DNA of 64,000 nucleotides, taken from a virus. Position 1 is the stretch's first letter. Each line of letters starts with the position of its first letter. Position numbers and translations under genes: made by a program. Of this stretch, positions 11,736 through 39,890 are shown one piece after another. Under the pieces are notes generated by a model. The model worked only from the letters and a program-made list of their open reading frames with translations, ran no database searches and was not told the origin of the DNA. The stretch is taken from IMG/VR virus record IMGVR_UViG_3300045996_001561, positions 15,345 through 79,344 of that record; one strand, written 5' to 3'.

Positions 11736-12329
11736 TCACCCCGAAGTGGGGCGATAGTCGATGGTTTTCGTTCCCTTGGAGCAGTTACAGGACAGGCACA
11801 GCGGTTGAATATTGCCGATATCATTCCTTCCCTTCCGGGCTAGCGGCACCACATGATCCGGTGTCAGGGGCTTGCGCTCCCCACAGGCAAGGCACCGATA
11901 CCCATACCGCGCCTGCAGTTCCTCCCATTCCCGGGCCGAGTAACTCCCCCCATTCTTCCGCAACCGCGCCCGACGCCGGGCCGATCGCATCTTGGAGTCC
12001 CGCCGCTCGTCCTCTTTCCGCTTCACCACGGCACAATCCCGGCACCACTTCGGTCGACTCCCCTGCCGAATCACCCACGAAAATTCCGCCCCACACCGCC
12101 GACATGCCACCATTTTTTCCGGATCCCGCTTCGCCTTCCTCCGCTTCTTGAACCGCCGCGCCGCCTCTCGCCGTAACGCATATCCCCGCTCCGTAAACGC
12201 CCACGCCCCCGAGGACTCCCGATCCTTCTTCCTGGCACAGCCCACACAATAGATCGCCCGATAGTGCCGATCCGCTATATCCACCCCACAGACCAAGCAC
12301 CGCCGCTCCCGTACCTGCTTCTTCGTCAT
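11736..12329 (-). CDS. HNH endonuclease with N-terminal zinc fingers
   Basis: CLACG..LTPDHVVPLARKGRNDIGNIQPLCLSCNCSK; upstream of the packaging genes. Confidence 0.9.
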   Translation of the reverse strand: MTKKQVRERRCLVCGVDIADRHYRAIYCVGCARKKDRESSGAWAFTERGYALRREAARRFKKRRKAKRDPEKMVACRRCGAEFSWVIRQGSRPKWCRDCAVVKRKEDERRDSKMRSARRRARLRKNGGSYSAREWEELQARYGYRCLACGERKPLTPDHVVPLARKGRNDIGNIQPLCLSCNCSKGTKTIDYRPTSG

Positions 12330-12485
12330 CCTCTGTTCTCCGCGTAGGGGTCGGAAGGTGTCAAGGGGGTCATCAGCATTGTCCCGAAATGTGGGCCGGA
12401 TTCATACGAAGGCTCCGCTGTAGGACACGTGTTCTACCCCCGCCGCGAAACACCCGTCTGGCCTACCGCGCGGCGCTACCCGGCG

Positions 12486-12527
12486 CTACCCCCCTACCGC
12501 GCGGCAAAGCTACGGGTAGGGGGGTAG
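12486..12527 (-). terminator. Hairpin after gene 12536-12787
   Basis: CTACCCCCCTACC...GGTAGGGGGGTAG inverted repeat. Confidence 0.5.
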
Positions 12528-12535
12528 GGGGTACC

Positions 12536-12787
12536 CTAGGACTGGCACATGCGTTCTAGTACCGCTACCCGCCTAGCCGCCGCGCGTACGTCGTCCGCTA
12601 GGTAGCTAGGTACCGCTACCCTATCCGCGCGGTAGTACCCGACTTCTAGCCGTAGGTCAGCTAGGGCGCTATAGGCATCGGCTAGCCGATCTTCTAGGCC
12701 GCGTAGCCGCGTACCGCGCGGTACCCAAGCGGTACCTTCATATTGGGCTACCGTACTACCGCTAGCCGCTACCATATAGCTATCCAC
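12536..12787 (-). CDS. Small early protein with extreme codon bias
   Basis: Own promoter, leader hairpin and SD GGAGGAAACC; GTG start; all 8 Leu are CTA. Confidence 0.7.
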   Translation of the reverse strand: MDSYMVAASGSTVAQYEGTAWVPRGTRLRGLEDRLADAYSALADLRLEVGYYRADRVAVPSYLADDVRAAARRVAVLERMCQS

Positions 12788-12834
12788 TGGTTTCCTCCTA
12801 CCGCTACGGCTAGCTTCCGTACTAGCCTATAGCT

Positions 12835-12863
12835 ACTATACCATACCCGTAGGCGATTGTCAA
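12835..12863 (-). promoter_or_regulatory. sigma70-type early promoter
   Basis: TTGACA-N17(TGG)-TATAGT. Confidence 0.85.
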
Positions 12864-12867
12864 TAGG

Positions 12868-13038
12868 CTAGTACGCTACCCTATAGGCGCTACCCGCGCC
12901 TAGTGGCCAGTACCCCGTATAGGTACCCCAAGCGCTACGGTACTGTACCCGTACCCCGGCTACCCGCCTAGCCGCTAGCCGCCGTACCCGCGCGCCGCGC
13001 GATAGGTACCCCGTACCCCGGCCGCCTAGCCTAGTCAT
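12868..13038 (-). CDS. 56-aa basic protein (below the ORF-track cutoff)
   Basis: MTRLGGRGTGYLSRGARVRRLAARRVAGVRVQYRSAWGTYTGYWPLGAGSAYRVAY, filling the space between promoters 13112 and 12863. Confidence 0.5.
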   Translation of the reverse strand: MTRLGGRGTGYLSRGARVRRLAARRVAGVRVQYRSAWGTYTGYWPLGAGSAYRVAY

Positions 13039-13083
13039 ACCCTACCCCCTACCGCTACCGTACCTACCTACCTAACTACCGCT

Positions 13084-13112
13084 ACTATAGCATACCCGTA
13101 CGCCATTGTCAA
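13084..13112 (-). promoter_or_regulatory. sigma70-type early promoter
   Basis: TTGACA-N17(TGC)-TATAGT. Confidence 0.85.
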
Positions 13113-13202
13113 CTACCTACGCGCGGGGTAGCTACGGTACTAGGCTATAGCGGCGCGCGGGTAGGTATACGGCTAGTACGGTACTACGGCTATACCTACC
13201 CC

Positions 13203-13231
13203 TTGACATACCCGTACGGCTATGGTAGTAT
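13203..13231 (+). promoter_or_regulatory. sigma70-type early promoter
   Basis: TTGACA-N17(TGG)-TAGTAT. Confidence 0.85.
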
Positions 13232-13305
13232 AGCGGTACTAGGGTAGTACGGGGTAGCGGGTACCCCGGCCTAGCGGGTAGGAAAGGGGGTAGCCTATAG
13301 GGGGG

Positions 13306-13334
13306 TTGACAATCACGGTACGCTATGGTAGGGT
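13306..13334 (+). promoter_or_regulatory. sigma70-type early promoter
   Basis: TTGACA-N17(TGG)-TAGGGT. Confidence 0.75.
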
Positions 13335-13398
13335 ATACCTAGAGCGGGGTACGGGTAGCGCGGTACGGAACGCGCGGTACCCCGTACGGAGGAAACCA

Positions 13399-13734
13399 AT
13401 GCACGGCGTGACAACTGAAGAGCGGTGTTCCTGCGGCGAGTACTCACTCGCTGGGGGTGGGACGATCTGCGCCTCGGAAGCTCGGGCAATCGAGGAGGAG
13501 GCGGTTCGGAGCCACTATGAGGTCGCCTATGACGAGGTCATGCCATTCCTCGTCGAGATGTACCGAGGCGTGGTGGAAGAGGATCGCTCGGCCAACACCT
13601 TGATGGCGGTCGTTAGAGCAGCCCAGCTTGCGCTCATGAACCCCGACATCACGGTCGATTGGGTCAAGGAGCAGTACGAGGACGTTGAGTTCGGAAATCG
13701 CGCGCAAAAGGCGCTCGATCCTCGGGTGGTCTAG
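13399..13734 (+). CDS. Small early protein
   Basis: SD CGGAGGAAACC; start MHGVTTEERCSC. Confidence 0.7.
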   Translation: MHGVTTEERCSCGEYSLAGGGTICASEARAIEEEAVRSHYEVAYDEVMPFLVEMYRGVVEEDRSANTLMAVVRAAQLALMNPDITVDWVKEQYEDVEFGNRAQKALDPRVV

Positions 13735-16128: not shown

Positions 16129-16208
16129 GGAAACCGTGGGGAGATCCCCACGGTTTCCTGCCTCCCTGGAAAGGCACGACGAAGGGTACCCCGAGGATGG
16201 GGTACCCT
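16129..16208. terminator. Paired hairpins between convergent genes
   Basis: GGAAACCGTGGGGA..TCCCCACGGTTTCC and AGGGTACCCC-gaggat-GGGGTACCCT. Confidence 0.6.
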
Positions 16209-18690: not shown

Positions 18691-18719
18691 TTGACAATAC
18701 CCCGCGTATATGGTACTAT
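18691..18719 (+). promoter_or_regulatory. sigma70-type early promoter
   Basis: TTGACA-N17(TGG)-TACTAT. Confidence 0.85.
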
Positions 18720-18769
18720 ACAACCAGTCAAGTGGGGGAACGGAAGCCCTCGGACGGAAGGAGGAAACA

Positions 18770-19225
18770 GTGATCAGGCCAGGAATGAAGATCACCCTAG
18801 AGAGTCTGGAAGAGATCGGGCCGTTCGCATGGCCGGGAGGGTACGTCAATACCTTCATCGACCGGGATGGCAGCATCCTGTGCTTCGATTGCGCCAAGAA
18901 GGATCTGCAGGACGGAAACCCGTTCGGATCGATCGCGTACGCGGGGTACGAGGAACGCGACCCCGAGGATGGCGACGTGATTTGCGATGGATGCGGACAG
19001 GAGGTCGATCCGGCGATTCGCGGTCGAGACGACGATCCCGCCACCGCCTGCCGCTACCGCGTACGCGGGAAGGATGTTGCCGAGTTTCACACGAACGTGT
19101 GGGACGAGGTGATCACCGAGGCTCGGAAGCTGCGCGGTGAGGGGATCAGAAACATCGCCGTCGAGGAACGGGATCACGGGCCGGGGTTTGGGCCGGGACA
19201 TTGGGTGGAGGTGATCTGGTCGTGA
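18770..19225 (+). CDS. Zinc-binding phage protein (AWPGGY..LCxxC..CxxC family)
   Basis: FAWPGGY..DGSILCFDCA..VICDGCG; SD GGAGGAAAC. Confidence 0.7.
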   Translation: MIRPGMKITLESLEEIGPFAWPGGYVNTFIDRDGSILCFDCAKKDLQDGNPFGSIAYAGYEERDPEDGDVICDGCGQEVDPAIRGRDDDPATACRYRVRGKDVAEFHTNVWDEVITEARKLRGEGIRNIAVEERDHGPGFGPGHWVEVIWS

Positions 19226-19533: not shown

Positions 19534-20038
19534 GATCCCTCGGGGGTACTACGAGAACTTTGGCACCGAGTACCACAACACGCGCGGGATGGGGTCAACC
19601 TATATCGCGGCGGCAGGATCGGGATGTCTGGGGGTCTCATGGAAGTTCTTTCTGATGGTGATGCTGATCGGGATTGTGATTGCCGCCTTCTGAGGGAGGC
19701 CCAGGCCCAGATCAGCACGGCCTGGATCGACGGCGACACGGACACCCTCGTCCAGTGGCTGGGCGCACTCGATCGCTCGATCCAGGCGAACGATCCACTG
19801 CAGAACGGTGCGGCCTTCCTGATCGAGTACACCGTGGCAGGGTTGGAGATCCTCCTGTTTGATCCCACGGTGCATGCATTCTATTGCACGGCACTCCTAC
19901 CCCAATTCTGGCCCCAACGCCCCACAGAGGCCACGGAGCGCGTCCACAGCGGGGGTTCCGTGGATGACGACCGGCAACGTCGTGCCGACGTGCTGCGGTT
20001 TCGCATCTTCGGGCCGTGGGAAGGGATGCCGGGGGACA

Positions 20039-20067
20039 TTGACAAATACGCGGGGGTGAGCTACACT
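20039..20067 (+). promoter_or_regulatory. Promoter of the candidate small RNA
   Basis: TTGACA-N17-TACACT; the only copy lacking the TG extended -10. Confidence 0.75.
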
Positions 20068-20073
20068 ACGCAG

Positions 20074-20206
20074 GCAACTAAAGGGAGCTTCCTCTAAGCT
20101 CCTGGGGGGTCGACACCGGCGATGCCGGAACCACTCGATCCCCAAAGGTTTCCTCCGAGTTGCACCTTCCGTGTCGGGAACCCCGGTCGCAAGGCTGGGG
20201 TTCTTG
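20074..20206 (+). ncRNA. Candidate structured antisense small RNA (~133 nt)
   Basis: Own promoter and no SD/ORF. Helices: GCAACT/AGTTGC, GGAGCTT/AAGCTCC, GGGGGTCGA/TCGATCCCC with inner CCGGC/GCCGG, and a 13-bp terminal stem with GCAA tetraloop. G-U pairs work only on the + strand. Confidence 0.75.
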
Positions 20207-20258
20207 GCGTCCCGATCACCCCCTGTGTATGTATGGGAAACTGGTTTCCATAATACCC

Positions 20259-20287
20259 TTGACAATACCCGTATGGTATGGTAGTAT
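20259..20287 (+). promoter_or_regulatory. sigma70-type early promoter
   Basis: TTGACA-N17(TGG)-TAGTAT. Confidence 0.85.
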
Positions 20288-20336
20288 TGTCAGTGGTGAA
20301 GGGTACGGAACCCTTCGCACGGAAGGAGGAAACGCG

Positions 20337-20780
20337 ATGCTGCAGACACAGGTCGATCATCAGTTTGGGGTGGGCGACCGGGCCATCCTGAAGCTGCGGC
20401 CGGGACGCAAGTTTGCCTACACCGGGTGGAAGGACGGCGATCTCGTCATCATCGATGCGGTCAACTTCCGCATCAACGCGGACGGATCGACGGTCGTCTT
20501 TTACGCGGTCACCCACACGCCCGGTGGGGGGCACGTCCACGTCGGTGCCAATGAGGTGGTGCCGCTGCTCGATCGCCCCACACCCCCACAGAAATTCCTG
20601 ATCTACGGCGGTGCGTACATCGCGCTGCTGGAGAAGGCGCTCGACGGCGGGCCATTCGCTCGGGCCATTCGCAACGCCACGCGCGCCGGAAACGATGCCT
20701 GCGGGTACGAGATCGTCCCGCGCAACGCCGAGGACGCCGCCCTGATCGCGCAGGCGGTGCGGGATGTGATGGTGCGCTGA
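20337..20780 (+). CDS. Hypothetical protein (SH3/KOW-like N-terminus)
   Basis: SD GGAGGAAAC; HQFGVGDRAIL..GWKDGD resembles the next gene's HAFAIGDAVML..GWVNGE. Confidence 0.65.
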   Translation: MLQTQVDHQFGVGDRAILKLRPGRKFAYTGWKDGDLVIIDAVNFRINADGSTVVFYAVTHTPGGGHVHVGANEVVPLLDRPTPPQKFLIYGGAYIALLEKALDGGPFARAIRNATRAGNDACGYEIVPRNAEDAALIAQAVRDVMVR

Positions 20781-26905: not shown

Positions 26906-27014
26906 GCTAGCATCGCAGGCAAAGAGCAGGGGCCGGGAGGGAAGATCCGGCCCCATAGCTCACCCGAGGTAAGGAATGGCGGCTGCCCCTCGGGATTTTG
27001 GTGAGGAGGTCACC

Positions 27015-27881
27015 GTGTCTGATCCTACCACAACCACGGGCGATGAACTACTGCGGATCTCTGGGCCTCGACCCAAGGGATTCACGATGCTGTATCACGT
27101 CATCGCGCGCCCACTGCTGACGGAGCATAGCGCGGTGCTGCGAACCTATGTGGCCCTCGGGTTGTATAGCAACGTGCAACGCGCGGCCTACCCCTCGATC
27201 GATACCATCGCCACGGATATCAACATGGATCCCCGGTCGGTCTACCGCGCCATCGACCGATTGGAAACCCTCGGATTGCTCTCAGTCATCCGATCCCCAG
27301 GAAAACCGAACCATTATGTCATGCTCTCTCCCGGGGATGATGGGTTCCTGACCCCTGACACCCGTGTCACGGGTGCTGCGTCAACCCCTGACACCCATGT
27401 CACCCCACCCCTGACACCCATGTCACCCGAACAAGACGGTCTGAACAAGAAGAAAGAATCATCTTCTGCAGAGAAGGAATCCATCAGGGATAATGGGCGC
27501 TCGTCTGTGGGCGCGGAAAGCACGACCCCACCCCCTACCCCCGCCCCACAAAAGAAATCGACAGATAAACCGATGACCCGATTGGCCCGCGAAGAGGCCG
27601 ATTCGTACTGGCAGGAGGAACGGGTCAAGCATTTCTTTCTGGAGATCCGCAAGCTCTACCCGCGCACCCTGGATCGCGGGCAGGAGATGGAGGCGTTCCG
27701 AAAGACGGTTGGAGCCAAGATCGTCCAGCACCCTGATCTCGATACGCAGATCTGGAACGGGCTGCACGCCTGGATCGCCTACTGGCAGAAGGAGGGAACC
27801 GAGACGCGATTCATCCCGCACTTCAGTACGTGGATCAATGGGGAACGATGGGATGCCAAGCCAACGGGGGTGACAACATGA
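27015..27881 (+). CDS. Replication initiator (HTH_36 / lambda O-like)
   Basis: AYPSIDTIATDINMDPRSVYRAIDRLETLGLL; internal iterons; C-terminal FIPHFSTWINGERW. Confidence 0.8.
   Translation: MSDPTTTTGDELLRISGPRPKGFTMLYHVIARPLLTEHSAVLRTYVALGLYSNVQRAAYPSIDTIATDINMDPRSVYRAIDRLETLGLLSVIRSPGKPNHYVMLSPGDDGFLTPDTRVTGAASTPDTHVTPPLTPMSPEQDGLNKKKESSSAEKESIRDNGRSSVGAESTTPPPTPAPQKKSTDKPMTRLAREEADSYWQEERVKHFFLEIRKLYPRTLDRGQEMEAFRKTVGAKIVQHPDLDTQIWNGLHAWIAYWQKEGTETRFIPHFSTWINGERWDAKPTGVTT
27351..27426 (+). repeat. Three iterons (likely replication origin)
   Basis: ACCCCTGACACCCrTGTCAC at 27351, 27384 and 27407, each containing a TGACA/TGTCA inverted repeat, followed by an A-rich tract. Confidence 0.8.
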
Positions 27882-28472
27882 AATGGTGGGTAGTGACCTT
27901 TCCCAATGGGAGCATCGAGGTTGCGGCGGCGAACGCTCCCGATGCCATGTGGCGCGGCGCGCACGCATGGCCTGCCCTTGACCGGACACCGAGCGAGATC
28001 GTGGACAGCATCACCGGCATCAAGCAGATCGGTAACGCACTGAAGTGGATAGGGCCGCGCGACCCGATCGTCATTGACACCATCCCGAACGGATCGTGGT
28101 GGGCCGAGAACAACCCCGTCTCCCCGCGCGAGACGTGGGAACTCCTGACACAGGTGATGTCATGAGTCGTCGCAAGGATCGGAATGGGTTTTCCGCCAAC
28201 CAGTGCAGCCTGTGCGAATCGATCACCTTGACCCTCGGTGATCAGGGCATGGGTGGTGTCCGCTACTGTCGGGACTGCATCCGCGAGACGCTAGGGTGGC
28301 ATCAGCTTTCACCCGAGGCCAAGGTCAGTCTGCAGACGCGATTCATCAACGCCTTACAGGATCCCGAGTACAAGCGGCAGATGACGATGTGGGGAACCCC
28401 AACCCCCGAGGAACGTCAGGCGATCTCCATTGGGGAGAGCCGCTATCGACTTGCCACGTCGGAGATGGGACG

Positions 28473-30431
28473 ATGATCACACGACCAGAAGAGGAAGCCG
28501 GGATCACCTATGCCGATCTCGATATCGACGTCCGGCACTGCCGCACCGAGGAATGCAAGACGTGGTGTCCCAAGTGCCGGGACACGCATTCGCCAGGAAA
28601 ACGCACCCAGAAGGATCTCTCGGTCAACCTCGCACGCGGGGAAGGGAAGTGCCACCGCTGCCCGTATACCTTCGGCCTCGGAAAAGAGGCCCGAGAACGC
28701 GGCCTGACCCCCAGAGTGGTATCTACCCCCCTTTCGCGCCCAAACGCCCCGCAGCGGCCACGGATTGAAGCGGAGCGGCCCCAAACAGAGGTCATGCCTC
28801 CCCGCACTATGCCGGGGTTGCTCCACGATTGGGCCGTCGAGTGGTGCGGACAGCGCGAGATCCCCGAAGATGTGATGCACCACTTCGGGATCGAGTCCAC
28901 CGAACGGTGGGAAGAATTCGATCAACCGACGCTGCACTTCCCCTATCGCCTCGACGGCACCCTCGTCAACATCAAGCACCGCATCCTCCCCAAAGATTTC
29001 CGGCAAGAGAAGAAAGCGCTCAGGTCGTGCTTCAACATCGACGCGGCGAATGGTGCCGAGACGGTAGTGGTTGCCGAGGGGGAGCTTGATGTGATGGCCT
29101 GCCATGAGGCCGGGTTCATCGCTATCTCTCCCCCCGATGGTGCGCCAGGACTGATCCGCGACCCGGTGACAGGTGCCACCACCGGGGTGGCCGAGGTCGG
29201 GAACAAGGCGATGGCCTTTCTGGAGCCGCGCAACGCCGAGATCCTCAGTGGCATCAAGCGGTTCATCATCGCCACCGATGCGGACATGGAGGGGCAAAAG
29301 CTGGCCGAGTGGCTGGTTGAGCATTTCGGGGCCGAGCGATGCTGGCAGGTCGCGTGGCCCGAGGGGGTCAAAGATGCGAATCAGATGCTCGTCGAGCGCG
29401 GGACGAAGGCGCTCACCGATCTGATATCCCGGGCGCGGCCGGTCAACCCTCCGGGGATCTACACCTTCGAAGATCAGCGCGAGGAAGCCCACTATATCCA
29501 TCAGCACGGACTCCCCAAGGGACTCTCCACCGGGTGGATCGACTTCGATAGCCTCTACACCGTCTGGTCGGGGTCGGTGGTCGTCATCTACGGCGTGCCC
29601 AGCCACGGCAAGACCTCCTGGGTCAACAACCTGATCGTCAATCTGGCCCACATCCACGACATGAAGTTCGGGGTGTTCTCCCCCGAAGCCGGTCGGCCGG
29701 TGATGGCGCTGATGAAGTACGTCCAGATCGCCAACGACCGTCCGCTCCTTCCCGGCTACGAGCAGCAGATGACTGCCGAGGAACTCGACATCGGCATCGA
29801 TTGGGTGCGGGATCGCTTCTTCCGCATCGATGCCCCGACCCAAGGTTCCAGCTATACCAAGTTCTCCATCCCCGAGATCGTCTCGCGTGGGGAGCAGCTT
29901 GCCTTGCGCTCAGGCATTGGTGGCCTCGTCATCGATCCCTGGAACTATCTGCTCCCGATGCGCCCGGACGGTCAGAGCGACACCGAATACGTGGCGAACT
30001 CGATCCTGCAACTGCATGAGTTTGCCGATCGGTATCAGACGACGGTATTCGTGATTGCTCACCCGACCAAGCAGGACTTCGGGCAGCGGGAGGATGCCGA
30101 GGAAACGATGCCGAAGCCCTACTCCATCGCGGGGAGCGCCCACTGGTACAACATGGCGGATGCGATCCTCGGGGTGCAGCGCAACAAGTACACCGAGCCG
30201 ATCAACCAGACGACGGTCAAGGTGTGGAAGAACCGCGAAGAAGGGGTCTACGGATCGCTGGGGGAGTGCTACTTCACCTTCGACGAACGGAGCCGTCGCT
30301 TTCATTGCCGTTCCACGCCGATCCCCATCCTGACCGGAACCAATCCCTATCCCGAGCTACCCGCCTCCCTGCGCGTCAGTCCGATGTCGATCAGCCAGGG
30401 GAACACGACCTTTGCCGACGAGCCGTTCTAG
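28473..30431 (+). CDS. T7 gp4/Twinkle-like primase-helicase
   Basis: Zn finger CPKC..CHRC; TOPRIM EGELD and DAD; Walker A GVPSHGKT; VIDPWN, AHPTK, YSIAGSAHWYN. Confidence 0.92.
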   Translation: MITRPEEEAGITYADLDIDVRHCRTEECKTWCPKCRDTHSPGKRTQKDLSVNLARGEGKCHRCPYTFGLGKEARERGLTPRVVSTPLSRPNAPQRPRIEAERPQTEVMPPRTMPGLLHDWAVEWCGQREIPEDVMHHFGIESTERWEEFDQPTLHFPYRLDGTLVNIKHRILPKDFRQEKKALRSCFNIDAANGAETVVVAEGELDVMACHEAGFIAISPPDGAPGLIRDPVTGATTGVAEVGNKAMAFLEPRNAEILSGIKRFIIATDADMEGQKLAEWLVEHFGAERCWQVAWPEGVKDANQMLVERGTKALTDLISRARPVNPPGIYTFEDQREEAHYIHQHGLPKGLSTGWIDFDSLYTVWSGSVVVIYGVPSHGKTSWVNNLIVNLAHIHDMKFGVFSPEAGRPVMALMKYVQIANDRPLLPGYEQQMTAEELDIGIDWVRDRFFRIDAPTQGSSYTKFSIPEIVSRGEQLALRSGIGGLVIDPWNYLLPMRPDGQSDTEYVANSILQLHEFADRYQTTVFVIAHPTKQDFGQREDAEETMPKPYSIAGSAHWYNMADAILGVQRNKYTEPINQTTVKVWKNREEGVYGSLGECYFTFDERSRRFHCRSTPIPILTGTNPYPELPASLRVSPMSISQGNTTFADEPF

Positions 30432-30434
30432 GGG

Positions 30435-30463
30435 TTGACATACCCGCGATGATGTGGTACTAT
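30435..30463 (+). promoter_or_regulatory. sigma70-type promoter
   Basis: TTGACA-N17(TGG)-TACTAT. Confidence 0.85.
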
Positions 30464-30511
30464 GCTCCCGGGTTGGAATACGGAGCCGCCCGGGAGCGAC
30501 TCGGAGGAACG

Positions 30512-31726
30512 ATGAAGCGTCTGACGGATTACTTCAGCGACCTGCCCACGGCGCTGGCCGATGGCAACTACCCGTTCGCGGAGTTCATGGAGCGTGCCCC
30601 GGATCCAGACAAGACGCGTGACTATTTCCTGTCTGCGCTTGAGGAGCGGACGACGCTCGACATCACGGACATGATGGAGGTTCTTGTCACGGGCCAGATG
30701 CTCAGTATGAACTTCAAGGGCATGACCGGATGCGTCCCACCCTGGTTCTCCACCCTGACGGAGTGGGCGCTCCCCGAGAGCGATCACGATCTGAACGTCC
30801 GCATCAAGGAGGTCGTGAACTTCCCGGTGCGCCGCTGGGGCACCCTCACGGTGGGCATGACCGCCAGCCAGATGGTGCATCTCATGCGGCGTCCCGACAA
30901 CACCATCGATCGTGACGAGATGACCACCCTCCCGAAGCTCTCTCCGGACGAGATCGCTGAGGCATTTCGGGAAGAGCATCCGATCATGCAGCGGCACAGC
31001 CACGACGTTGCCGCGAATATCGGGTGGTACCTCCTGATGTATCCCTTCATCCGTACCAACCGGGGGATGCTGGGGCCACTCTACGAGGTTCACACCGTCC
31101 TCGATCACGACGGCAAGCCGCTGGTATTGCCGCACATAGAGGGTGATTACCTGAAGTGGGAAAAGGACGACACATCGCACGTCGCCATCTGGAACGAGTG
31201 GACGTCCTCTGCGCCCCTCGGTCGGGCGATCTTCAGCGGGAACACCCTCCACACCCCGAACGATCGATCGGTGATCGCCTTCTCCACGGTGTTCGTGATG
31301 CCGACGCTGCACGCCTTTGAGCTTGCCAACTACCGCAACATCCGCCCTCGCCCGGTGGAGCCACGCTACGCCTCCCGGCAGGAGCGAAGGGATGCCGAGC
31401 GGCGTGGCGACCCGCCGCTGACCAAGTACCACATTCTGGAGATCCTCCCGGCCGGGTCGACGAACGCCAAGCTGGCCCGACCGCTGGGGGAGGTCATGCG
31501 CGAGATGCCGCTGCACGCCGTGCGACGGCACAAGCGGGTCTACACGAAAGAGGCTCCCCTCTTTGGGAGGTTTGGGGATCCCCGCTACTACGGCACCTTC
31601 TGGATCGCTCCCCACACCCGGGGCGACCGGGAGAAGGGCGTGGTGCAGAAGGACTACATCGAGACGGCACGAACGGTGGAGATTGCCGAGGCGGATCGCC
31701 ACGGCATCACCCCGGTCATCGCCTGA
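30512..31726 (+). CDS. Phage protein with C-terminal HxVRxHxR..FW..H.RG motif
   Basis: LHAVRRHKRVY..FWIAPHTRGD; SD CGGAGGAA. Confidence 0.7.
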   Translation: MKRLTDYFSDLPTALADGNYPFAEFMERAPDPDKTRDYFLSALEERTTLDITDMMEVLVTGQMLSMNFKGMTGCVPPWFSTLTEWALPESDHDLNVRIKEVVNFPVRRWGTLTVGMTASQMVHLMRRPDNTIDRDEMTTLPKLSPDEIAEAFREEHPIMQRHSHDVAANIGWYLLMYPFIRTNRGMLGPLYEVHTVLDHDGKPLVLPHIEGDYLKWEKDDTSHVAIWNEWTSSAPLGRAIFSGNTLHTPNDRSVIAFSTVFVMPTLHAFELANYRNIRPRPVEPRYASRQERRDAERRGDPPLTKYHILEILPAGSTNAKLARPLGEVMREMPLHAVRRHKRVYTKEAPLFGRFGDPRYYGTFWIAPHTRGDREKGVVQKDYIETARTVEIAEADRHGITPVIA

Positions 31727-31740
31727 GAGGGAGAGAGCAT

Positions 31741-32498
31741 TTGCCACCTGTCAACATCAGCCTTGATGCGGCGCTGCGGGAGCGCGACGATATTTTGACG
31801 CGCATGGATAGCGAGGCGGCGAAGGCGTACATCGTCACGCACGGGGGGAAGGTTCCGAGGGAGAACCTCGATTGGGAGAAGGTGTTGCATCTGGCACGCC
31901 TGGAAGTCACGACCCTTCCCGGGGAGGTGCGTTCGGAAAGCCGCGTCTGGCTTGCCCGAAACGGCGCGCAGTCGATCATGACCCTTGGCCCCGATAGCCC
32001 GTACGTCACGGCCGTGCTTGATCTGATCTTCCCCGCCGCGCTCACCGATGCCTACATCGCGGAGATGGAGAAATCCCAGCGCCACCCGTATCCCGGCAAT
32101 CCTCTTGTCTCCAACGGAGGGACGGTGTGATCGTCGTCACGGTTGAACTGTGGCCCTACGGCATCGAGGGATTGAAGCGCCACCTGGGAACGGCCCGGAT
32201 CTGGAACGACACCACGGGCGATCCCAAAACAGGGAACTACCAGATCGAACTCCTTGGTCGCATGGAGTCGAGTGATTACCGGGGGTATCCTGGGATGCAC
32301 GCAAACCCCGATTGGGGGAGCGACGAGGTCTCGGAGGAAGATCTGATGGTGACCCTGTCGAAGTGGGGTCGACCGGATCAGGTCTGGAAGAAAGGAGAGG
32401 TCAAAGGATTTCCTCGCACCCGCCTTGGGGCGTGGGACTTGCTCTATCTGGCTCTCCGCAACATTGTCGGGAGCCGCAACAGGGAGGTCGGGTCATGA
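31741..32498 (+). other. Two hypothetical CDS (31741-32130, 32127-32498)
   Basis: Coupled ORFs with SD sequences. Confidence 0.6.
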
Positions 32499-32824
32499 TT
32501 CGTCGCGCAATCGTGGCGGCATGGATGGTGGTGGTGTTCCTGGGCGGGCAGGCAAGCGCCCAAGGGTACAGTTACGAGCAGGCCATCTACGACGCCTGTG
32601 CCCGCTACGGGTGCAACGGCGATCAGTTGGTGCGGGTGATGTACTGCGAGAGCGGCGGCAACCCCTATGCGGTCGGCCCGAACGGGGAGCGCGGTCTGTT
32701 CCAGTACCACCCCTATGGACACAACCCGGCAGCGGCCTGGGTCGATCCCTACACCCAGATCGACATTGCGGCGCGGGAGTGGGCCGCAGGACTTGGCTAT
32801 CTCTGGGTGTGCCAGGGCTGGTAG
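32495..32824 (+). CDS. Secreted lytic transglycosylase (SLT/Rpf-like)
   Basis: Signal peptide; VMYCESGGNPYA..GLFQY. Confidence 0.8.
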   Translation: MIRRAIVAAWMVVVFLGGQASAQGYSYEQAIYDACARYGCNGDQLVRVMYCESGGNPYAVGPNGERGLFQYHPYGHNPAAAWVDPYTQIDIAAREWAAGLGYLWVCQGW

Positions 32825-33076
32825 GAGGAATACGTCGATGCCCGGAGGTAATGATGCCCTCGCGCACGCGCACGGCGTGCAGGAGAATCTCCGGGCCATC
32901 GACCTCGCTCTGCAGATACTCCGCTTCCTGCACGAAAAGGGGTCGACCCGACTCACCATCGACGAGGCGGTCGATGTTTACGAGATGCAGGTACTGACCA
33001 CTTCGGCCAAGCGCAAGGCCGACACCCTCGTCGCATCGATGACGCGGCGAATGAAGGACAAGGAGAGCGAATCGCA

Positions 33077-33799
33077 ATGACCACGATCAATCGTCGTCGC
33101 TTGTTCGGATCAGGGCTGGGCGCACTCGTCGCCGCTGTAGTGGCGAAGGTGGCTCCGGTGGAGGCCGCACCCACCGGGGCAATCCTCGGGGAAGCCACGG
33201 GCACCATCTCGGTCGATGTGGCTCCTGCCATGACGGCGATGGACAGCCTGCATTCCTACATCTCGGCCATCCCCGATCCGGTTCCGTGGGCTACGCCACC
33301 GCACATGGAGATGATCCCGACCCCGCTCTCCCAGGACACGACCGCGTATTACGGCGGGACTGATGGCGGGCAGGAGGTTCTCACCATCCCTGAGCCACAG
33401 ATCCTTGCATCTGTCACGGGGGACTACCTGACGATCGACGAGTGGGCACCGTACCCGGTGGATGTGGGGAATCGGCGCATCTCGGCCAGGATCGATGAGG
33501 GACACACGATCCTTGTCTGTGGGAGTCGGGAGGTTGCCGTCTACTGCGATGGTCGTGAGATCGGCATCAACCTGTTCCCATCCGTCCGCAACCGTCCAGG
33601 CGGTGGTGAGTGGTGGGGATCATTCCGCATCGATGACGGCGCGTGGCACGCCCTAACCGTTCCGCGCGGCGTCGACACCATCAAGCTCTACGCCTCGGGA
33701 CAGATCAGCCACTTGACCGGGGGAGACTACTTCTCTGTCTCGCACGACGACGGCAAGACGTGGACGAAGATCCCAATCACGTCATGGACGTGGGAATGA
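33077..33799 (+). CDS. Tat-signal secreted protein
   Basis: MTTINRRRLFGSGLGALVAAVVAKVAPVEA. Confidence 0.65.
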   Translation: MTTINRRRLFGSGLGALVAAVVAKVAPVEAAPTGAILGEATGTISVDVAPAMTAMDSLHSYISAIPDPVPWATPPHMEMIPTPLSQDTTAYYGGTDGGQEVLTIPEPQILASVTGDYLTIDEWAPYPVDVGNRRISARIDEGHTILVCGSREVAVYCDGREIGINLFPSVRNRPGGGEWWGSFRIDDGAWHALTVPRGVDTIKLYASGQISHLTGGDYFSVSHDDGKTWTKIPITSWTWE

Positions 33800-34204
33800 T
33801 CCTCAACCTCTTTCCCGAGCGAAAGATCGGGACGGTTGAGTTTCAGTACCTCTCCTGCAATTGGGACAACCGCAGGCTGAAGCGCAAGATCCCGATTGGC
33901 AACCCTCGGAGCCGCTACGACCGGCGTGAGCATGTCTGCGCGAGGCGGCGGGCCAATCCCTACATCAGAGAGCAGTGGTACGCATGAGGGAAACGAACGA
34001 TTCAGTGGAGAAGTGGGAGGCTGACGCGAGGCAGTGGGTGCGAGATTCCACCCTGTCCCTAGTTCCCCTGATCAAGCGTCGGGCCAACCTGTTCAGGGCG
34101 GCGACCGGGATGAATCGTCGCCGCTCCACTGAGCAAGCCATCAAGCATCTTCAGGCCATCCAGAAGCGTGAGACACCCGCGACCCTCTTGGGAGTGTCAT
34201 TCGA

Positions 34205-34636
34205 ATGACGCGCCCACGCTTTCAGATGGGCGCGGATGCCTACAAGGACTCGGTGAGCGAGGCACAGTGGCAGGCAACGCTCGTCGAGCAGGCCGGATAC
34301 TACGGCTGGGTGGTGCTGCTCTCGATCCCCGATAGCGGCCTCGCGGCCCTCGGGCACATCATCCAGCGCATCAAGAAGGGGCAGGCCCAAGGGCCACTCC
34401 GGGGGTTGCTGGCGCTCCTGGCCGCGATCAGTGGATGGCCGGACTTGACGCTGGGCCACCCCCATCTGCACCGCACGATCTGCGTCGAGGTCAAGACCAA
34501 CACCGGGACGGTGCGGGCCAACCAGAAGGCAATGCTGTCCCTGCTGCCCCGGTGCGGAATCCCCAGCTACGTATGGCGTCCCAAGGATGGCGACGAGGTT
34601 GAACGGGTCTTGTCAGGGGTTGACATACCCGGTTAG
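34205..34636 (+). CDS. VRR-NUC PD-(D/E)XK nuclease / resolvase
   Basis: SEAQWQ..SGWPDLTL..CVEVKTNTG.V..NQ..YVWRP. Confidence 0.8.
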   Translation: MTRPRFQMGADAYKDSVSEAQWQATLVEQAGYYGWVVLLSIPDSGLAALGHIIQRIKKGQAQGPLRGLLALLAAISGWPDLTLGHPHLHRTICVEVKTNTGTVRANQKAMLSLLPRCGIPSYVWRPKDGDEVERVLSGVDIPG

Positions 34637-34648
34637 TTGTGGTATTAT
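34620..34648 (+). promoter_or_regulatory. sigma70-type promoter
   Basis: TTGACA-N17(TGG)-TATTAT. Confidence 0.85.
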
Positions 34649-34671
34649 ACGGAGCGTGAAAAGGGGGAGAA

Positions 34672-35127
34672 ATGAGTAACACGATGCCACGACCGATGGA
34701 CAGTGAGGCCGAGGCGCGCGTCGAACGCTGGCGCAAGCTAGAGGCCCAGGGCATCAACCGCTCCGAGATTGCCCGACGCGAGGGCATCAGTCGGCAGCGA
34801 GTGACGGCCAAGCTGGGGCCACTCCCCGACCGGGGGGGTCGCAAGGAGAAGCGCATCTACGTCCATGAGGGCGATTACCGCAAGGCGGCGGAAGTCGCCA
34901 AGAGCCTCGGCCTGCGGTTGCGGGCCGGGGAAACCTCGGGCGAGGGGTCGGTGAGTCTGCTCGTCGAGCTTATCGGTCGCGGGCAGCTAGTGGTGTCGCG
35001 GCGGACGGAAACCGCGAGGCCGAAGGAGGAAACGGATGGTGCGCCCACCGCACCAGTGGATGGAAGAGGCGATGACGCGACACCTGAGGGGGCTGGCAAC
35101 GTCGTTCCAGATGATGCAGCGGCTTAA
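34672..35127 (+). CDS. HTH DNA-binding protein
   Basis: GINRSEIARREGISRQRVTAKL. Confidence 0.7.
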   Translation: MSNTMPRPMDSEAEARVERWRKLEAQGINRSEIARREGISRQRVTAKLGPLPDRGGRKEKRIYVHEGDYRKAAEVAKSLGLRLRAGETSGEGSVSLLVELIGRGQLVVSRRTETARPKEETDGAPTAPVDGRGDDATPEGAGNVVPDDAAA

Positions 35128-38100
35128 GATCTTTCACCGTGGGGAGAAGTTGACCCGGTGTGAGCGGCGGGCGCTGCAGTTCCTGATCCAGATCCATTCG
35201 AACCAGCTTCCGGAAACCTACTCCGACCCGCGAGAGCGGAGAGCGTGGAATGCTGGTGCGCGCTACGGCGCTGAGGTGATGGGAGACATCCTTGGCCCTG
35301 CAAGTTGGCGGAACTACCCCGCGATCGCTGAGCGATATTGCCGCATCTACTGTCGAGATCGAGGAACGGCTGATCGCGCTCCGGGCGGTAAGGGATCACG
35401 TCGAGCAGGAGCAGCAACGCCTTCTGCTCCTGCAGCTTGACTACGAGCAGCAGATCGACGCCCTGGAGCGACGGCTGCCCAGACTGTGGGGGGATCGTGT
35501 CGACCTTATCCATGCCCAGCGCTTCTTTGGTACCGAGGATATCGAAATCGTTGGTGATTGAGCATCGCGTCCCGAGGGACACCACGCCGATCTACGGGAC
35601 GGTTGAGATTGCGCCCTACCCGGTACGGGAGTGGAGCGGCGGTGTCGACCTGCGCGGTCAGCCTCGCGTGGCCGGGTATGTGGGAGAGATTGCCCCGGGT
35701 GGGGATGTGGAAGCCTACGGCTACATCTACCGCTACCAGACGATGCGAACGATCCACGGACGCGCCTGGATCCACCGGGCGCTGAACCGGCTGCAGTACC
35801 TCGGATCCTTCACCGGGACGGATGCCCACGACCGGGCAGTCGATGCGGTGCTGCGCGGCGACCGTGAGGCCACGCACGGTGAGCGATGACCCCGCGACCG
35901 TCCAGCCTTCGCAACCTCGCCTTCGTGCGGCCGACCTGTGTCGCATGCTCCGACAGGAGATCGAGGTTGCCAAGGCGTCTCAGGGAACGTACACCCAGAA
36001 GGCTAGGAGATCGATTGAGCGCATGGGGCCGGATGACAACAACGCTGACTACTGGATGGTCTACGTGGCGATAGCTGAGATTCGTCAGCGGGCCTACGAG
36101 GCGGCATTCAGAGAGCAGTGCGATGGCTAGGATCACCCCGGAATTCCAAGATGAAGTCTGTGAGCATGCGAGGGTCTACCGAGCCAATGCGATCACCCAC
36201 ATCATATCGGAGAGTCACCAACTCCAAGCTGCTCAAACGAATGGCTGGAAGGATATCGCCGTCACCCTGGTTGGCCGCATCACGGTTGAACAGGAGGTCA
36301 TCGCTATGGCCGACCGACTCATCAGATTCTTCTGCTGCGACGAAGATGCATCCCCTGCCCGCCAGCACCAACAGCATCAATGGGAGCGATGGAATGCCGA
36401 TCGAGCTACCGAGTAACGTCACGCCGCTGTGGGAGGGGTCGATCACGGTACGCATCTTCCGCGATCGACTCTGGCCCGACTTGCCCGCCGCGAGTGATGG
36501 GGAAGTAAATCTTGCGGACGTTGACCCCATCGCTAGCTCAATCAAGTTTGCCCGGCTCTGGCAGGACGAGTTACAGCGCCGCCAGAAGCGATCCCGATTG
36601 CGCTTTACCACGGAGCCGGGGTCGTTTCAGACGCAGGTCGATGTTGGCGTCAACCATGCCAACCCTCGGGCGATGGAGGATACCCTGGCCGTGGGGATGA
36701 GCGTCTACGGCCGGTGGAAGGAGTGGGTGGTTCTCGTCGGGACTCCCGAGGCGCGGGATATCCGAGCGGCATACCAAGCCAACCGCACGGAGCAGCAACC
36801 GGAGGAACCCCCTGATCATGAGTTCTAACACCCCCTCCCCTGATCCGATGTGTCGTTCGTGCGGTCTGCGCCCCCGCAGCGGTGAGAGCCGGTATTGCGC
36901 CGTCTGCGAGGCGAACGGCATGGCATCGATTGATCGTCTTATGACGCGTGCGCTCGATGATGTCATTGCTAAAACTCGGCAGAAGATCGACCGGAACCTC
37001 AACGACGCATTCGGGAGGGTGTGCGAGTGAAGAAGCTGGTTTCTGCGTGGTCGTCAACGGCCAACGATCTCAACTGGAAGGCGAGGCGACTGGAGAGCGA
37101 TAACTACCACCGCGAGGCCCAGGTGGTCTGGTCACTCGCCTCCACCATTGAGGTCGCCATCGAGACGAGGCCGCTCGATGAAGAGGTCGATATCGATCTC
37201 ACCGACCAAGCGATCGATATGGCTATGCGGATAGACGATTGAGCGATCACGAACAGATCCGACGCGGGCTGGCCGCATCGACTATGCAACAGGTGTCACG
37301 GCTCGTCAAGGATTACACCGACGCCCTTCCGGTCACCAGCATCCACAAGAAGAACGCGATCGAGGTCGAGCGCATCCTGAACCGGGTCGCCGGGGCCATC
37401 CGCGACGGCCACATCGCGCCAAGTGAATGGGAGTTCCTCACATGGCTCAGTCCGGAGGGCGGCTTGAAAGAAAGCCCTGCCGCCTCTGCAAAGAACCCGT
37501 CGTCTGGGTACAGCACATCAAGCGCATCGCAGACGGCATCGAGTGGGGAAAGCGCACCCCCCTCAACCCCGACCCCCTCGACTTCCGAGCAGGCAACCTT
37601 GCCCGGGTAAACCCCCGCGAGGTTGAGGGCCGCACCGATGTCGTGGAGTTCATCCCCGAGAACCGGCGCTGGATGTTCGAACGCCTCTATCTCGATCACC
37701 ACGCGACCTGCGAGGTCTGGAAGTGGTGCAAGGATCAGGGGTTCAGCTTCAAGGAGTGTCTTGACACATGCGCCAGCAACAAGCCGATTCTGAACCAGAG
37801 CGCGAGGGAGGATCGGGAGCCGCAGCAGTACTCCCTCGACCGGAGCCGCTAGGCCCACGGGGAGACTGGCTGCCGCTTATCGACATGGGTGTGCGCCCAG
37901 GCGACGACGAGAAGGAGGTGGTGCGCCGAGGACAACGCGCGAAGGCCATCGAGCGGATCGTGACGGGACAGTGGCTGTTCCCGCACGTCATCGTGCGAAG
38001 CTATGCTGCTGTCCCGTACGCTCCCCAGGTGCAGCATCACCCCTCGGGAGCGGTTCGCTACCAGTGTTATTGCCGCCAAACCGTCATCACCCTGATCCCC

Positions 38101-39890
38101 ATGAGTGTTGCGGTCTGTCCGGCGTGTTTTCGTACCGTGCTGTACACCACGACCTATGTGGTGATCGACGAGCCGTCTCGCATCTAGGAGGATATCGCGT
38201 GCCCCGTTCACTGACGATCCCGTACATTTCCAAGACCGCCGCCATTCGCATGGTCAGGGAGGAAGGAGCCGACCCCTTGCACGTTGCGGCCCGCATCATC
38301 AGCCAGCGCCGCACCGAGCTTGTGCAGGTATCGCGGCTCCTGAGCCAGCGCGCCCCACGCGATCCTGCGGATCCGCCGAACGACCATGCCTATGTCGAGA
38401 TGCCGGGACGCCTTCCGGAGATGGCCGAGGTCGCGGGACTATGACCGAGAGTCTTGGACGCCTCTGGATCGAGGATCCTAGCGAGGACATTGGCTCCGTC
38501 CTCACCCGACCCTACATTCGGGATTCGGGTCTGCCCCGGCGCTCCCTTGGCACCTATCAGGCGATCCGGCGCTACAAGAAGGGAAAGGTGCGCTGGGTCG
38601 CTATTCAGGTAGCCTTCGACGACGGAGCCATTGGCATCGGAGCTATGCCTGCCAGCGACCCGGGGTGGGTCGAGGTCTACTCGGTATGAGCATCCCCTCG
38701 GTGCGTCAGGTCGACAAGCATCACCTGACGTCGGTGATCCGCCAGCAATTGGCCGCGTCGTGGGCGACGAACGACCGTCTGCAGCGGGGTCGGGTGTTAT
38801 GCGACACGGATCGTGAGCGTCATCACGGCATGCTAGTGATGTCCCGGGCCATCTGCCGCTCGATCGGCTGCGATGCCGATACGATCAACACCGAGGCGGC
38901 ACGTCTCGCGCGATCGGTGCAGGAATAGCGTGCCGCGTGCCGCAACGGGCATCAGGGCAGGAGGGGGGATTCGCTGCCCCTCCTGCCTGCGCTACTCCCA
39001 GGCCGCTGAGTGGAAAACCTACTTCTGCCCCAAGTGCGGGGAGCATCACGACCGGCTCTACAAGGACGAGCATCTGGATCCGGATCGGGCACGCACGATG
39101 ACCCGCCACGATATCCGTGTGGAATACTCCCGCGCGGGTATGGCATTTCGGAGAGGGTAATGGGAGGGCGCGAGGTCATCCTGGCGGTGCTGTTCACGGT
39201 CGCGGTGGTGATGATCGCCTCGGCCGTTGCCACCCCCACGCCTCCCATCGATCCAATTCCACCACCCACGGACGCCACCCCGGTGACGCTTGACCCCACG
39301 CCCACGATGCGCATCCCCACGGCCGTCCCGATCTGGAAGCTCTCCATCTGGGATTGCCAGGAGATTCCCCACGTTGGGACACGGTGCGCCACCATCGCGT
39401 GGCAGTACCGGGAGCTACAGGATGCTAGGCAACGATCCTATTACTACGGAGATCACCACCGATGAGAGTCACCCCGACGTTTATTCCCCTCTCGCGTGAT
39501 CCGAAGCTGGGGCCGCTGATCATCACGACCCAACATGGCTATGACGAAGAGATTGAGGATCGCGGTACCATCCGACACCCTCGGCGCATGGAGGTTACCT
39601 TGCCTGACGGACGCATCTACGTCAACGATGGCTATGGCCCCCTCCCCCCGAAGTCGGACGGCAAATTCGTCGCTGTACGCCTGCGGAGTCCCGATCTGGT
39701 TGAGACGGAGTTCTGGGTGAAGCCTGCCGTACGCCACGCTGGCACGGGGCACTTTATGGCGATCACCACCAAGCCGTGGGAGCATTTCGTCTACCAAGCC
39801 ACGCACGATCCCGATTGGATGAAGAAGCCATTTGGCGCATTGGCCTTCCCCGACGACCCCGTCCTGATCTGGCATGAGGTGCTTGACTAG
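35036..39890 (+). other. Dense run of ~15 small hypothetical CDS, several with CxxC pairs
   Basis: Overlapping start/stop ORFs, e.g. 35036-35440, 36123-36416, 36818-37030, 37239-37610, 37427-37852, 38441-38689, 39462-39890; exact starts unresolved. Confidence 0.55.

Follow-up and report, generated by a model that had tools for sequence, protein, structure and literature searches.

A 133-nt stretch in the early region of an uncultured soil phage, running on the + strand from a predicted transcription start to the end of a terminator stem (20074-20206), may encode a small RNA that acts in trans by base-pairing with the leaders of the phage's early genes. We put the chances of this at about even, and would place such an RNA among the kin of C4-like or C-rich anti-Shine-Dalgarno (anti-SD) riboregulators. 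The features computed here are the sequence of the candidate, its fold and the accessibility of its exposed stretches, its complementarity to the leaders and the enrichment of that complementarity, the lack of a minus-strand gene at the locus, and an analogous RNA in one relative, the phage G001.

Coordinates refer to the window, a stretch of 64,000 nucleotides (GC = 62%) that corresponds to bases 15345-79344 of a 79,344-bp IMG/VR virus record with a completeness rating of 99%. Identical low-depth fragments of this 79-kb phage were found in soil and terrestrial metagenomes from four studies; since the four DNA runs contain only such fragments, the reads give no usable variants. Our gene map, made with a home-made codon-usage gene finder and PHROGs/Pfam scans, assigns the structural and lysis genes to the minus strand, below 12 kb and above 45 kb, and between them shows a zone of small genes of alternating orientation (12.5-18 kb) and an arm at 18-45 kb in which all genes are on the + strand, with ParB-like, replication-initiator, and primase-helicase genes amid ORFans. 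A tRNA/tmRNA search returned none. Several other features of the map are worth recording. The late arm includes a minus-strand gene for a 2650-aa protein (G000:C1:1561-9512, window -13784..-5832), of which G001 has a 43%-identical homologue (27680-35428). A 1.4-kb segment at window 12030-13398 contains four consensus promoters (12863 and 13112 on the minus strand, 13203 and 13306 on the + strand) and no gene called by the codon-usage finder; P13306 lies ~75 nt after P13203 with no ORF between, and the two may be tandem promoters or mark another small transcript. Gaps of 160-200 nt without confident genes occur in the + strand arm at window 35128-35291, 37243-37441, and 38038-38198, and the ParB-like gene is followed by a strong hairpin, GGGGCCGGGAGGGAAGATCCGGCCCC (window 26906-26975), which is among the few other terminator-like structures inside this arm.

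Promoter, fold, and terminator of the candidate RNA

The candidate is preceded by a sigma70-type promoter, TTGACA-N17-TACACT (20039-20067, + strand), located inside the last codons of an upstream ORFan gene of 157 aa (19624-20097, + strand). This ORFan, for which no relatives were found, keeps a positive codon score to the end of its frame, and its 3' end carries the RNA promoter as well as the first two elements of the predicted fold, the P1 5' arm and P2. Promoters of the form TTGACA-N17-TANNNT are frequent in the window (26 copies versus 0.07 expected), and 25 of the 26 carry an extended -10, TG(G/C); the copy at 20039-20067 is the only one without it and, for this reason, may be weak or decaying. 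A first, sequence-only reading of the window had proposed 20039-20206 as an antisense RNA with two seeds, and its coordinates and sequences for this segment were all correct on re-check. It had also reported that neither an SD nor an ORF follows the promoter, and an ORF search likewise found no SD-preceded frame. Searches with cmscan, at the gathering threshold across the whole window and at E <= 10 on 19900-20400, found no Rfam family for the candidate RNA.

On the + strand, 20074-20206 is predicted to fold into a three-way junction plus a GCAA-capped terminator (MFE -65.5 kcal/mol, z -4.9, with the MFE structure making up 25% of the ensemble), whereas the minus-strand fold of the same segment is unexceptional (z -1.0). 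Compared with all 133-nt windows of the genome, the candidate ranks in the top 0.9% for energy and the top 7% for strand asymmetry—strong, though not unique. The P1 5' arm, GCAACU (20074-20079), starts at the predicted transcription start and pairs with the 3' arm AGUUGC (20158-20163), which sits between the two seeds. Within P1, the fold comprises the P2 hairpin (20083-20103), whose loop, CCUCU (20091-95), adds a third anti-SD-like stretch rich in C and U and contains the stop codon of the upstream ORF, and the P3 hairpin (20105-20143), with an internal CCGGC/GCCGG helix. The junction holds AAAGGUUUCCUCCG, and the free linker is ACCUUCCGUGU.

The terminator is a 16-bp hairpin with a GCAA tetraloop, three G.U pairs, and the tail UUCUU (20175-20206, + strand). 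Folded alone it reaches -29.1 kcal/mol (z -4.7) on the + strand versus -13.8 kcal/mol (z -0.3) on the minus strand. The terminator is clearly specific to the + strand, on which its three non-Watson-Crick pairs are G.U, against A.C mismatches on the minus strand; the RNA body is less strand-specific (z -3.6 versus -2.0). The short tail, UUCUU only, counts against a trans-acting small RNA; it is nonetheless in keeping with the phage's own style, since its other terminators also lack long U tracts. A 10-mer common to the terminator and a leader, GGAACCCCGG, was at chance level and was set aside. In silico, the locus has the generic make-up of a small RNA, with its own predicted promoter and intrinsic terminator around a short non-coding transcript, and also that of a 3' UTR-derived small RNA of the internal-promoter type, its promoter lying inside ORF 19624-20097 (a gene by codon score only) and a single terminator closing the unit at 20175-20206.

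Leader cassettes and predicted pairing

The proposed targets are repeated promoter/leader cassettes. CGGAA followed by GGAGGAA within 40 nt after the promoter was found in 13 copies versus 0 expected, and about 20 leaders are promoter-proximal. Aligned leaders show hairpin stems that vary freely (GGGG/CCCC, GCGCG/CGCGC, GGCTAG/CTAGCC, AGGTTG/CAACCT, GTCAGG/CCTGAC) around constant loops, ACGGAA(G). GGAGGAA lies 3' of the hairpin, with an AAC(C) extension in about half of the leaders, and GGAGGAAAC occurs 11 times versus 0.44 expected. RNAalifold returned no structure from a MAFFT alignment of the leaders, which was not a structural alignment.

Two cassettes flank the candidate. One (18691-18772, + strand) heads the operon that ends at the candidate RNA, and its leader, with ACGGAAGGAGGAAAC, is the second-ranked predicted target (18770). 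The other is the next cassette downstream (20259-20339, + strand), consisting of a promoter, an ACGGAA-loop hairpin, ACGGAAGGAGGAAAC, and the start codon of gene 20337, which is one of the three best predicted targets. The + strand cassette promoters at 18691, 22264, 24802, 25751, 30435, 34620, 39894, and 42990 are all directly adjacent to, or overlap, the end of the gene before them; 20259 is the only one in the + arm (18-45 kb) with ~160 nt of non-coding DNA and a terminator before it. Just upstream of its -35 lies a perfect palindrome, GGAAAC-TG-GTTTCC (window 20236-20249), and a longer GGAAACC...GGTTTCC hairpin occurs in the convergent terminator at 16.1 kb (window 16129-16158); both contain the GGAAAC/GTTTCC word common to the SD extension and the RNA seed.

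Two unpaired stretches of the predicted fold complement the conserved leader elements. Seed 1 is the anti-SD sequence GGUUUCCUCCG in the junction (20147-20157, + strand), the complement of CGGAGGAAACC, with an opening cost of 2.1 kcal/mol; seed 2, CUUCCGU in the single-stranded linker (20166-20172, + strand), complements the ACGGAAG leader loop and costs 0.13 kcal/mol to open. The predicted fold bears out the earlier claim that both seeds are unpaired and stand in the right antiparallel order relative to the leader elements, and at these costs neither is buried in a stable fold, an outcome that would have spoken against pairing. The perfect leader matches that had been quoted are real (12 nt at gene 15683, 11 nt at 13399 and 30512, and 10 nt at 12787 and 25829), as is the mirror image of the whole seed region in the 43056 leader. 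A single stray copy of GGAGGAAAC would be unsurprising by itself, given 11 occurrences versus 0.44 expected. On the other hand, when ACGGAAG stands 8 nt upstream of such a copy on the same strand, and the pair is located between genes and flanked by a + promoter and a + terminator, a chance origin becomes very improbable (<1e-3 per window by our estimate). Chance does not account for the mirrored motifs, which reflect a working antisense RNA or else arose incidentally when cassettes recombined.

We scored pairing of the candidate with 133 start regions, using 18-nt duplex windows and the opening energies of both partners, because duplexfold on full-length RNAs gave unrealistic long duplexes. 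A k-mer census of genome-wide antisense matches was too noisy to use, as the leader stems are self-complementary. Ranks 1-7 were all promoter-proximal leaders: 13399 at -17.7 kcal/mol, then 18770, 20337, and 15153 at about -14 kcal/mol, followed by 14110, 30512, and 25829. Median energies were -9.5 kcal/mol for promoter-proximal leaders, -6.8 kcal/mol for other genes with equally strong SDs, and -5.5 kcal/mol for the remaining genes, and the difference between promoter-proximal leaders and non-promoter genes of equal SD strength was significant (Mann-Whitney p = 2e-5). The junction seed, the linker seed, and the P2 loop were each enriched for leaders when tested separately, and the linker seed reaches the hairpin loops of 15856, 22341, 24881, 30512, and 43056 at -7 to -10 kcal/mol. 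In silico, the RNA thus presents single-stranded seeds complementary to translation initiation regions beyond background, and the accessibility-corrected ranking came out as the sequence-only reading had predicted, with early leaders at the top and late genes elsewhere; this ranking is partly circular, since the finding itself came from noticing the same complementarity. That reading had put the number of targets at about 18 leaders. There are ~20 promoter-proximal leaders, but only 7 are strong predicted targets (<= -12.8 kcal/mol; the others score -6 to -11 kcal/mol) and 7-10 are well matched. Its statement that the AAAC(C) extension is unexplained by 16S pairing needs a caveat, in that an A-rich tail after GGAG has a protein precedent in the T4 RegB/S1 site (PMC3014915).

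From these features we infer that the RNA is transcribed, pairs with leaders in vivo, and represses them, in the following manner. Host sigma70 RNA polymerase would start at ~20074 from a weaker variant of the early promoter, inside the end of the upstream gene, and would halt at the GCAA-capped hairpin (20175-20206). The three-way junction would leave CCUCU in the P2 loop, GGUUUCCUCCG in the junction, and CUUCCGU in the linker unpaired; the linker would dock on the conserved ACGGAA(G) hairpin loop of early leaders, and the junction would next cover the SD, GGAGGAAAC(C), and keep the 30S subunit off. As the RNA accumulates, promoter-proximal early genes would then be translated less or not at all, with 13399, 18770, 20337, 15153, 30512, 25829, and 24881 as the strongest proposed targets. 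A role in early-to-late timing is unproven, because the RNA would share its polymerase and its time of synthesis with its targets.

A parallel unit in phage G001

The comparison with relatives covers one phage, G001 (80,353 bp, terminal repeats). Relatives of the TerL protein are 55-65% identical and lie on ~80-kb contigs; the TerL of G001 is 58% identical. G001 is syntenic with this phage across the structural and replication genes, at 30-80% protein identity, and contains 12 promoters of the same type. Other searches yielded less. The flanking ORFans had no relatives; the primase had only 30%-identical relatives among viral contigs, without cassette promoters, and none among GTDB genomes; and a ParB search recovered one 41% relative on a 4.3-kb contig, while an alignment-based ParB scan found nothing. 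At the DNA level, pattern scans of viral and metagenome contigs for the seeds, the promoter, and the whole cassette yielded no more than isolated, unrelated matches, a blastn comparison of the window with 286 loci gave none, and GenBank phages showed no DNA match and a TerL identity of <= 32%.

The early leaders of G001 differ from those of this phage, having hairpin loops of the form (A/G/U)UCGGAA and the motifs AGGGAGUC and GGAGGAAUCAG. A candidate RNA unit of G001 occupies the corresponding early region, upstream of the replication module and of the homologue of gene 24985. It lies on the minus strand (promoter 68213, -10 TACATT) and consists of 158 nt without an ORF, a hairpin plus UUUUU terminator, and then the next promoter (fold z -3.9). 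Its segment GAGACUCCCUGUC is perfectly complementary to the 79760 leader over 13 nt and to the 54990 leader over 11 nt; CUGAUUCC complements GGAAUCAG, and UUCCGA complements the UCGGAA loops. Each RNA favoured the leaders of its own genome. Perfect matches of at least 9 nt were found for this phage's RNA in 9 of its own 20 leaders (median -9.5 kcal/mol) and in none of the 10 G001 leaders (-6.9 kcal/mol), and for the G001 RNA in 2 of its own 10 leaders (-7.7 kcal/mol) and in none of the 20 leaders of this phage (-5.0 kcal/mol). The own-leader enrichment of the G001 RNA is modest (p = 0.014, n = 10 leaders), and its seeds are partly buried in the predicted fold.

BLAST detected no sequence homology between the two RNAs, the best matches lying elsewhere, and cmscan of the G001 region gave no Rfam match, C4 included. 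A conserved 'AAGGUUUCC..GAG' block was dropped as evidence, because BLAST with G001 did not single out the G001 candidate. By position and logic, the G001 RNA is an analogue, rather than a proven orthologue, of the candidate described here; two genomes allow no real covariation statistic.

A second promoter-driven non-coding unit of G001 (L309:7805-7981; promoter 68016, body 67805-67981, minus strand) also has the -10 TACATT, spans ~177 nt, and is closed by a GCAA-capped hairpin immediately ahead of the following cassette promoter. It lacks complementarity to leaders, showed no leader preference (p = 0.89), and served as a negative control. The -10 elements of the non-coding units, TACACT here and the similar TACATT at 68213 and 68016 in G001, are set apart from those of the cassettes (TAGTAT/TATAGT here, TAAGGT/TAGGAT in G001), a difference that hints at a separately regulated promoter subclass. 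Elsewhere in G001, GTTTCCTCCGATTT (70279-70292, + strand) matches the anti-SD seed over 11-14 nt; it falls within a gene called on the minus strand, on the strand that is not transcribed, and could reflect a wrongly called start or an SD inside the gene.

Alternative readings and known systems

The same sequence features could be read in other ways. An unlikely possibility is that the element works in cis, as a 3' UTR or insulator whose hairpin closes off the 18691 operon and keeps read-through transcription from entering gene 20337, with the mirrored motifs acting within one molecule, either by masking the 20337 leader on read-through transcripts or by pairing the operon's 5' leader (18770) with its 3' end. 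A + specific terminator does stand at the end of this three-gene operon, the contiguous 15-mer ACGGAAGGAGGAAAC is present only in the two flanking leaders (ranks 2 and 3), the linker pairs with ACGGAAGG of the 20337 leader in the predicted read-through fold, and C4 of phage P1 likewise acts on its own operon. On the contrary, action in cis leaves unexplained the consensus -35/-10 with its exact 17-bp spacing and the start of P1 at +1, the best match at the distant leader 13399 (-17.7 kcal/mol), and the analogous free-standing unit in G001; furthermore, no other + strand operon junction needs such an insulator.

We also assign a low probability to a non-functional origin, in which recombination among the repeated cassettes left behind an inverted leader fragment and the complementarity is a by-product of descent. 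Read on the minus strand, the locus does resemble an 18770/20337-type leader, with a hairpin, ACGGAAGG, an 8-nt insert, GGAGGAAACC, and a properly spaced TTG. Many cassettes a short way upstream (12.5-18 kb) point in the minus direction, the RNA promoter looks degenerate, and the comparable PeSL cassettes of T4-type phages recombine readily (PMC2839356). A mere relic would not be expected to retain pairing at all three non-Watson-Crick hairpin positions on the + strand and not on the minus strand, nor to have an 8-nt insert that is exactly the P1 arm pairing with the transcript's 5' end. In addition, no remnant of a minus-strand promoter is visible, and in G001 a unit of this kind carries the antisense of that phage's own leader motif, which differs from the one here. 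We favour a functional RNA over a by-product because the + promoter is placed such that P1 starts at +1 and the 8-nt spacer between the seeds is precisely the P1 partner, and because of the + specific G.U pairs, the non-coding gap unique in the + arm, and the parallel unit of G001, which follows the leaders of that phage. The element probably arose when a leader of the 18770/20337 type was inverted, an origin compatible with function.

It is highly improbable, in our estimation, that the RNA serves some other role, its CCUCC-type stretches mimicking the 16S rRNA 3' end or binding a protein or host mRNAs, with host ribosome-binding sites or a factor as the targets. Its three unpaired C/U-rich motifs recall the multi-target C-rich small RNAs of Firmicutes, and any strong SD pairs with it to some extent, SD5 non-promoter genes outscoring weak-SD genes (p = 0.001); yet the phage's cassette leaders outscore other strong-SD genes in turn (p = 2e-5), and two features are specific to the phage, the AAACC that extends the SD core and the complement of the loop. 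Finally, we give almost no credence to a real minus-strand gene of 80 aa (19897-20136, minus strand), which would start at the TTG at 20136 and use the mirrored SD GGAGGAAACC with a 4-nt spacer: despite its 80 open codons, its codon log-odds are -11 versus +6.6 for the overlapping + frame, its predicted product is Arg/Pro-rich and shadow-like, a promoter pattern search of the window found no minus-strand promoter for it, every gene from 18 to 45 kb is on the + strand, and the minus-strand copy falls short of a leader cassette, with ACGGAAG outside any hairpin loop and three A.C mismatches in the upstream hairpin.

Precedents exist for several parts of the proposed RNA-based mechanism. The C4 RNA of P1/P7 and the P4 CI RNA are phage-encoded and protein-free, place two short exposed seeds on two elements around a ribosome-binding site, and are encoded just upstream of their target gene. 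The candidate is like C4 of P1/P7, an RNA known to repress Ant synthesis (PMC8546580), in having two short seeds that would cover a ribosome-binding site and in adjoining one of its predicted targets. It differs in that C4 is a 77-nt RNA processed from an operon transcript, with its seeds in loops and a single operon as target, whereas the candidate is bounded by a predicted promoter and terminator of its own, exposes its seeds in a junction and a linker, and has ~7-20 dispersed predicted targets. Membership of the C4 family (RF01695), which had been proposed as a check, found no support from cmscan, either on the window or at E <= 10 on 19900-20400.

C-rich multi-target anti-SD small RNAs of the RsaE/RoxS, RNAIII, and LhrC type direct several unpaired C/U-rich motifs at many SDs and end in a Rho-independent terminator. 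The seeds of the candidate are likewise unpaired and C/U-rich; those RNAs, by contrast, are bacterial and chromosomal and act in host metabolism or virulence, while the candidate is encoded by a phage and complements the cassette leaders of that phage, a loop motif outside the SD among them. In layout, the candidate resembles small RNAs of the DapZ and MicL type, whose promoter lies inside the 3' end of an upstream coding region and whose terminator is common with the mRNA. Known examples of that type are enterobacterial and Hfq-dependent, whereas a Pfam/PHROGs scan of 30 early proteins found no RNA chaperone here, nor a repressor or a RegA/RegB-like protein.

On the target side, the closest described match to the cassettes is the PeSL of T4-type phages, repeated units of a strong sigma70-like promoter, a GGGG..CCCC stem-loop, and an SD that flank ORFans in a plastic early region (PMC2839356). 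PeSL stem-loops, however, are terminators or recombination sites without a conserved loop, whereas here the stems vary and the loop (N)CGGAA is kept, even in G001, and a candidate antisense RNA matches it. In T4 itself, RegA competes with ribosomes on ~30 mRNAs, and RegB cuts at GGAG followed by an A-rich tail, the RegB/S1 site being GGAGRAYARAA (PMC3014915). The system proposed here would resemble RegA and RegB in shutting off early mRNAs globally and post-transcriptionally at the translation initiation region, the effector being an RNA rather than a protein.

To our knowledge, the described phage riboregulators (C4, CI, OOP, Sar, and PreS) control either a single gene or operon or genes of the host, and global shut-off of early phage translation is known for proteins only (T4 RegA and RegB). 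With somewhat less than even confidence, we suggest that a family of uncultured ~80-kb soil phages may restrain early translation globally by RNA alone, through a small RNA that parallels T4 RegA/RegB, arose from an inverted leader cassette, and has exposed stretches that co-evolve with the cassettes. The system is compact enough for reporter and compensatory-mutation tests without culture of the host. If the proposal is true, it would account for the conserved leader loops and SD extensions of ORFan genes that have nothing else in common, and a single small RNA matched to a repeated leader cassette would constitute a simple, evolvable means of timing a whole class of genes.
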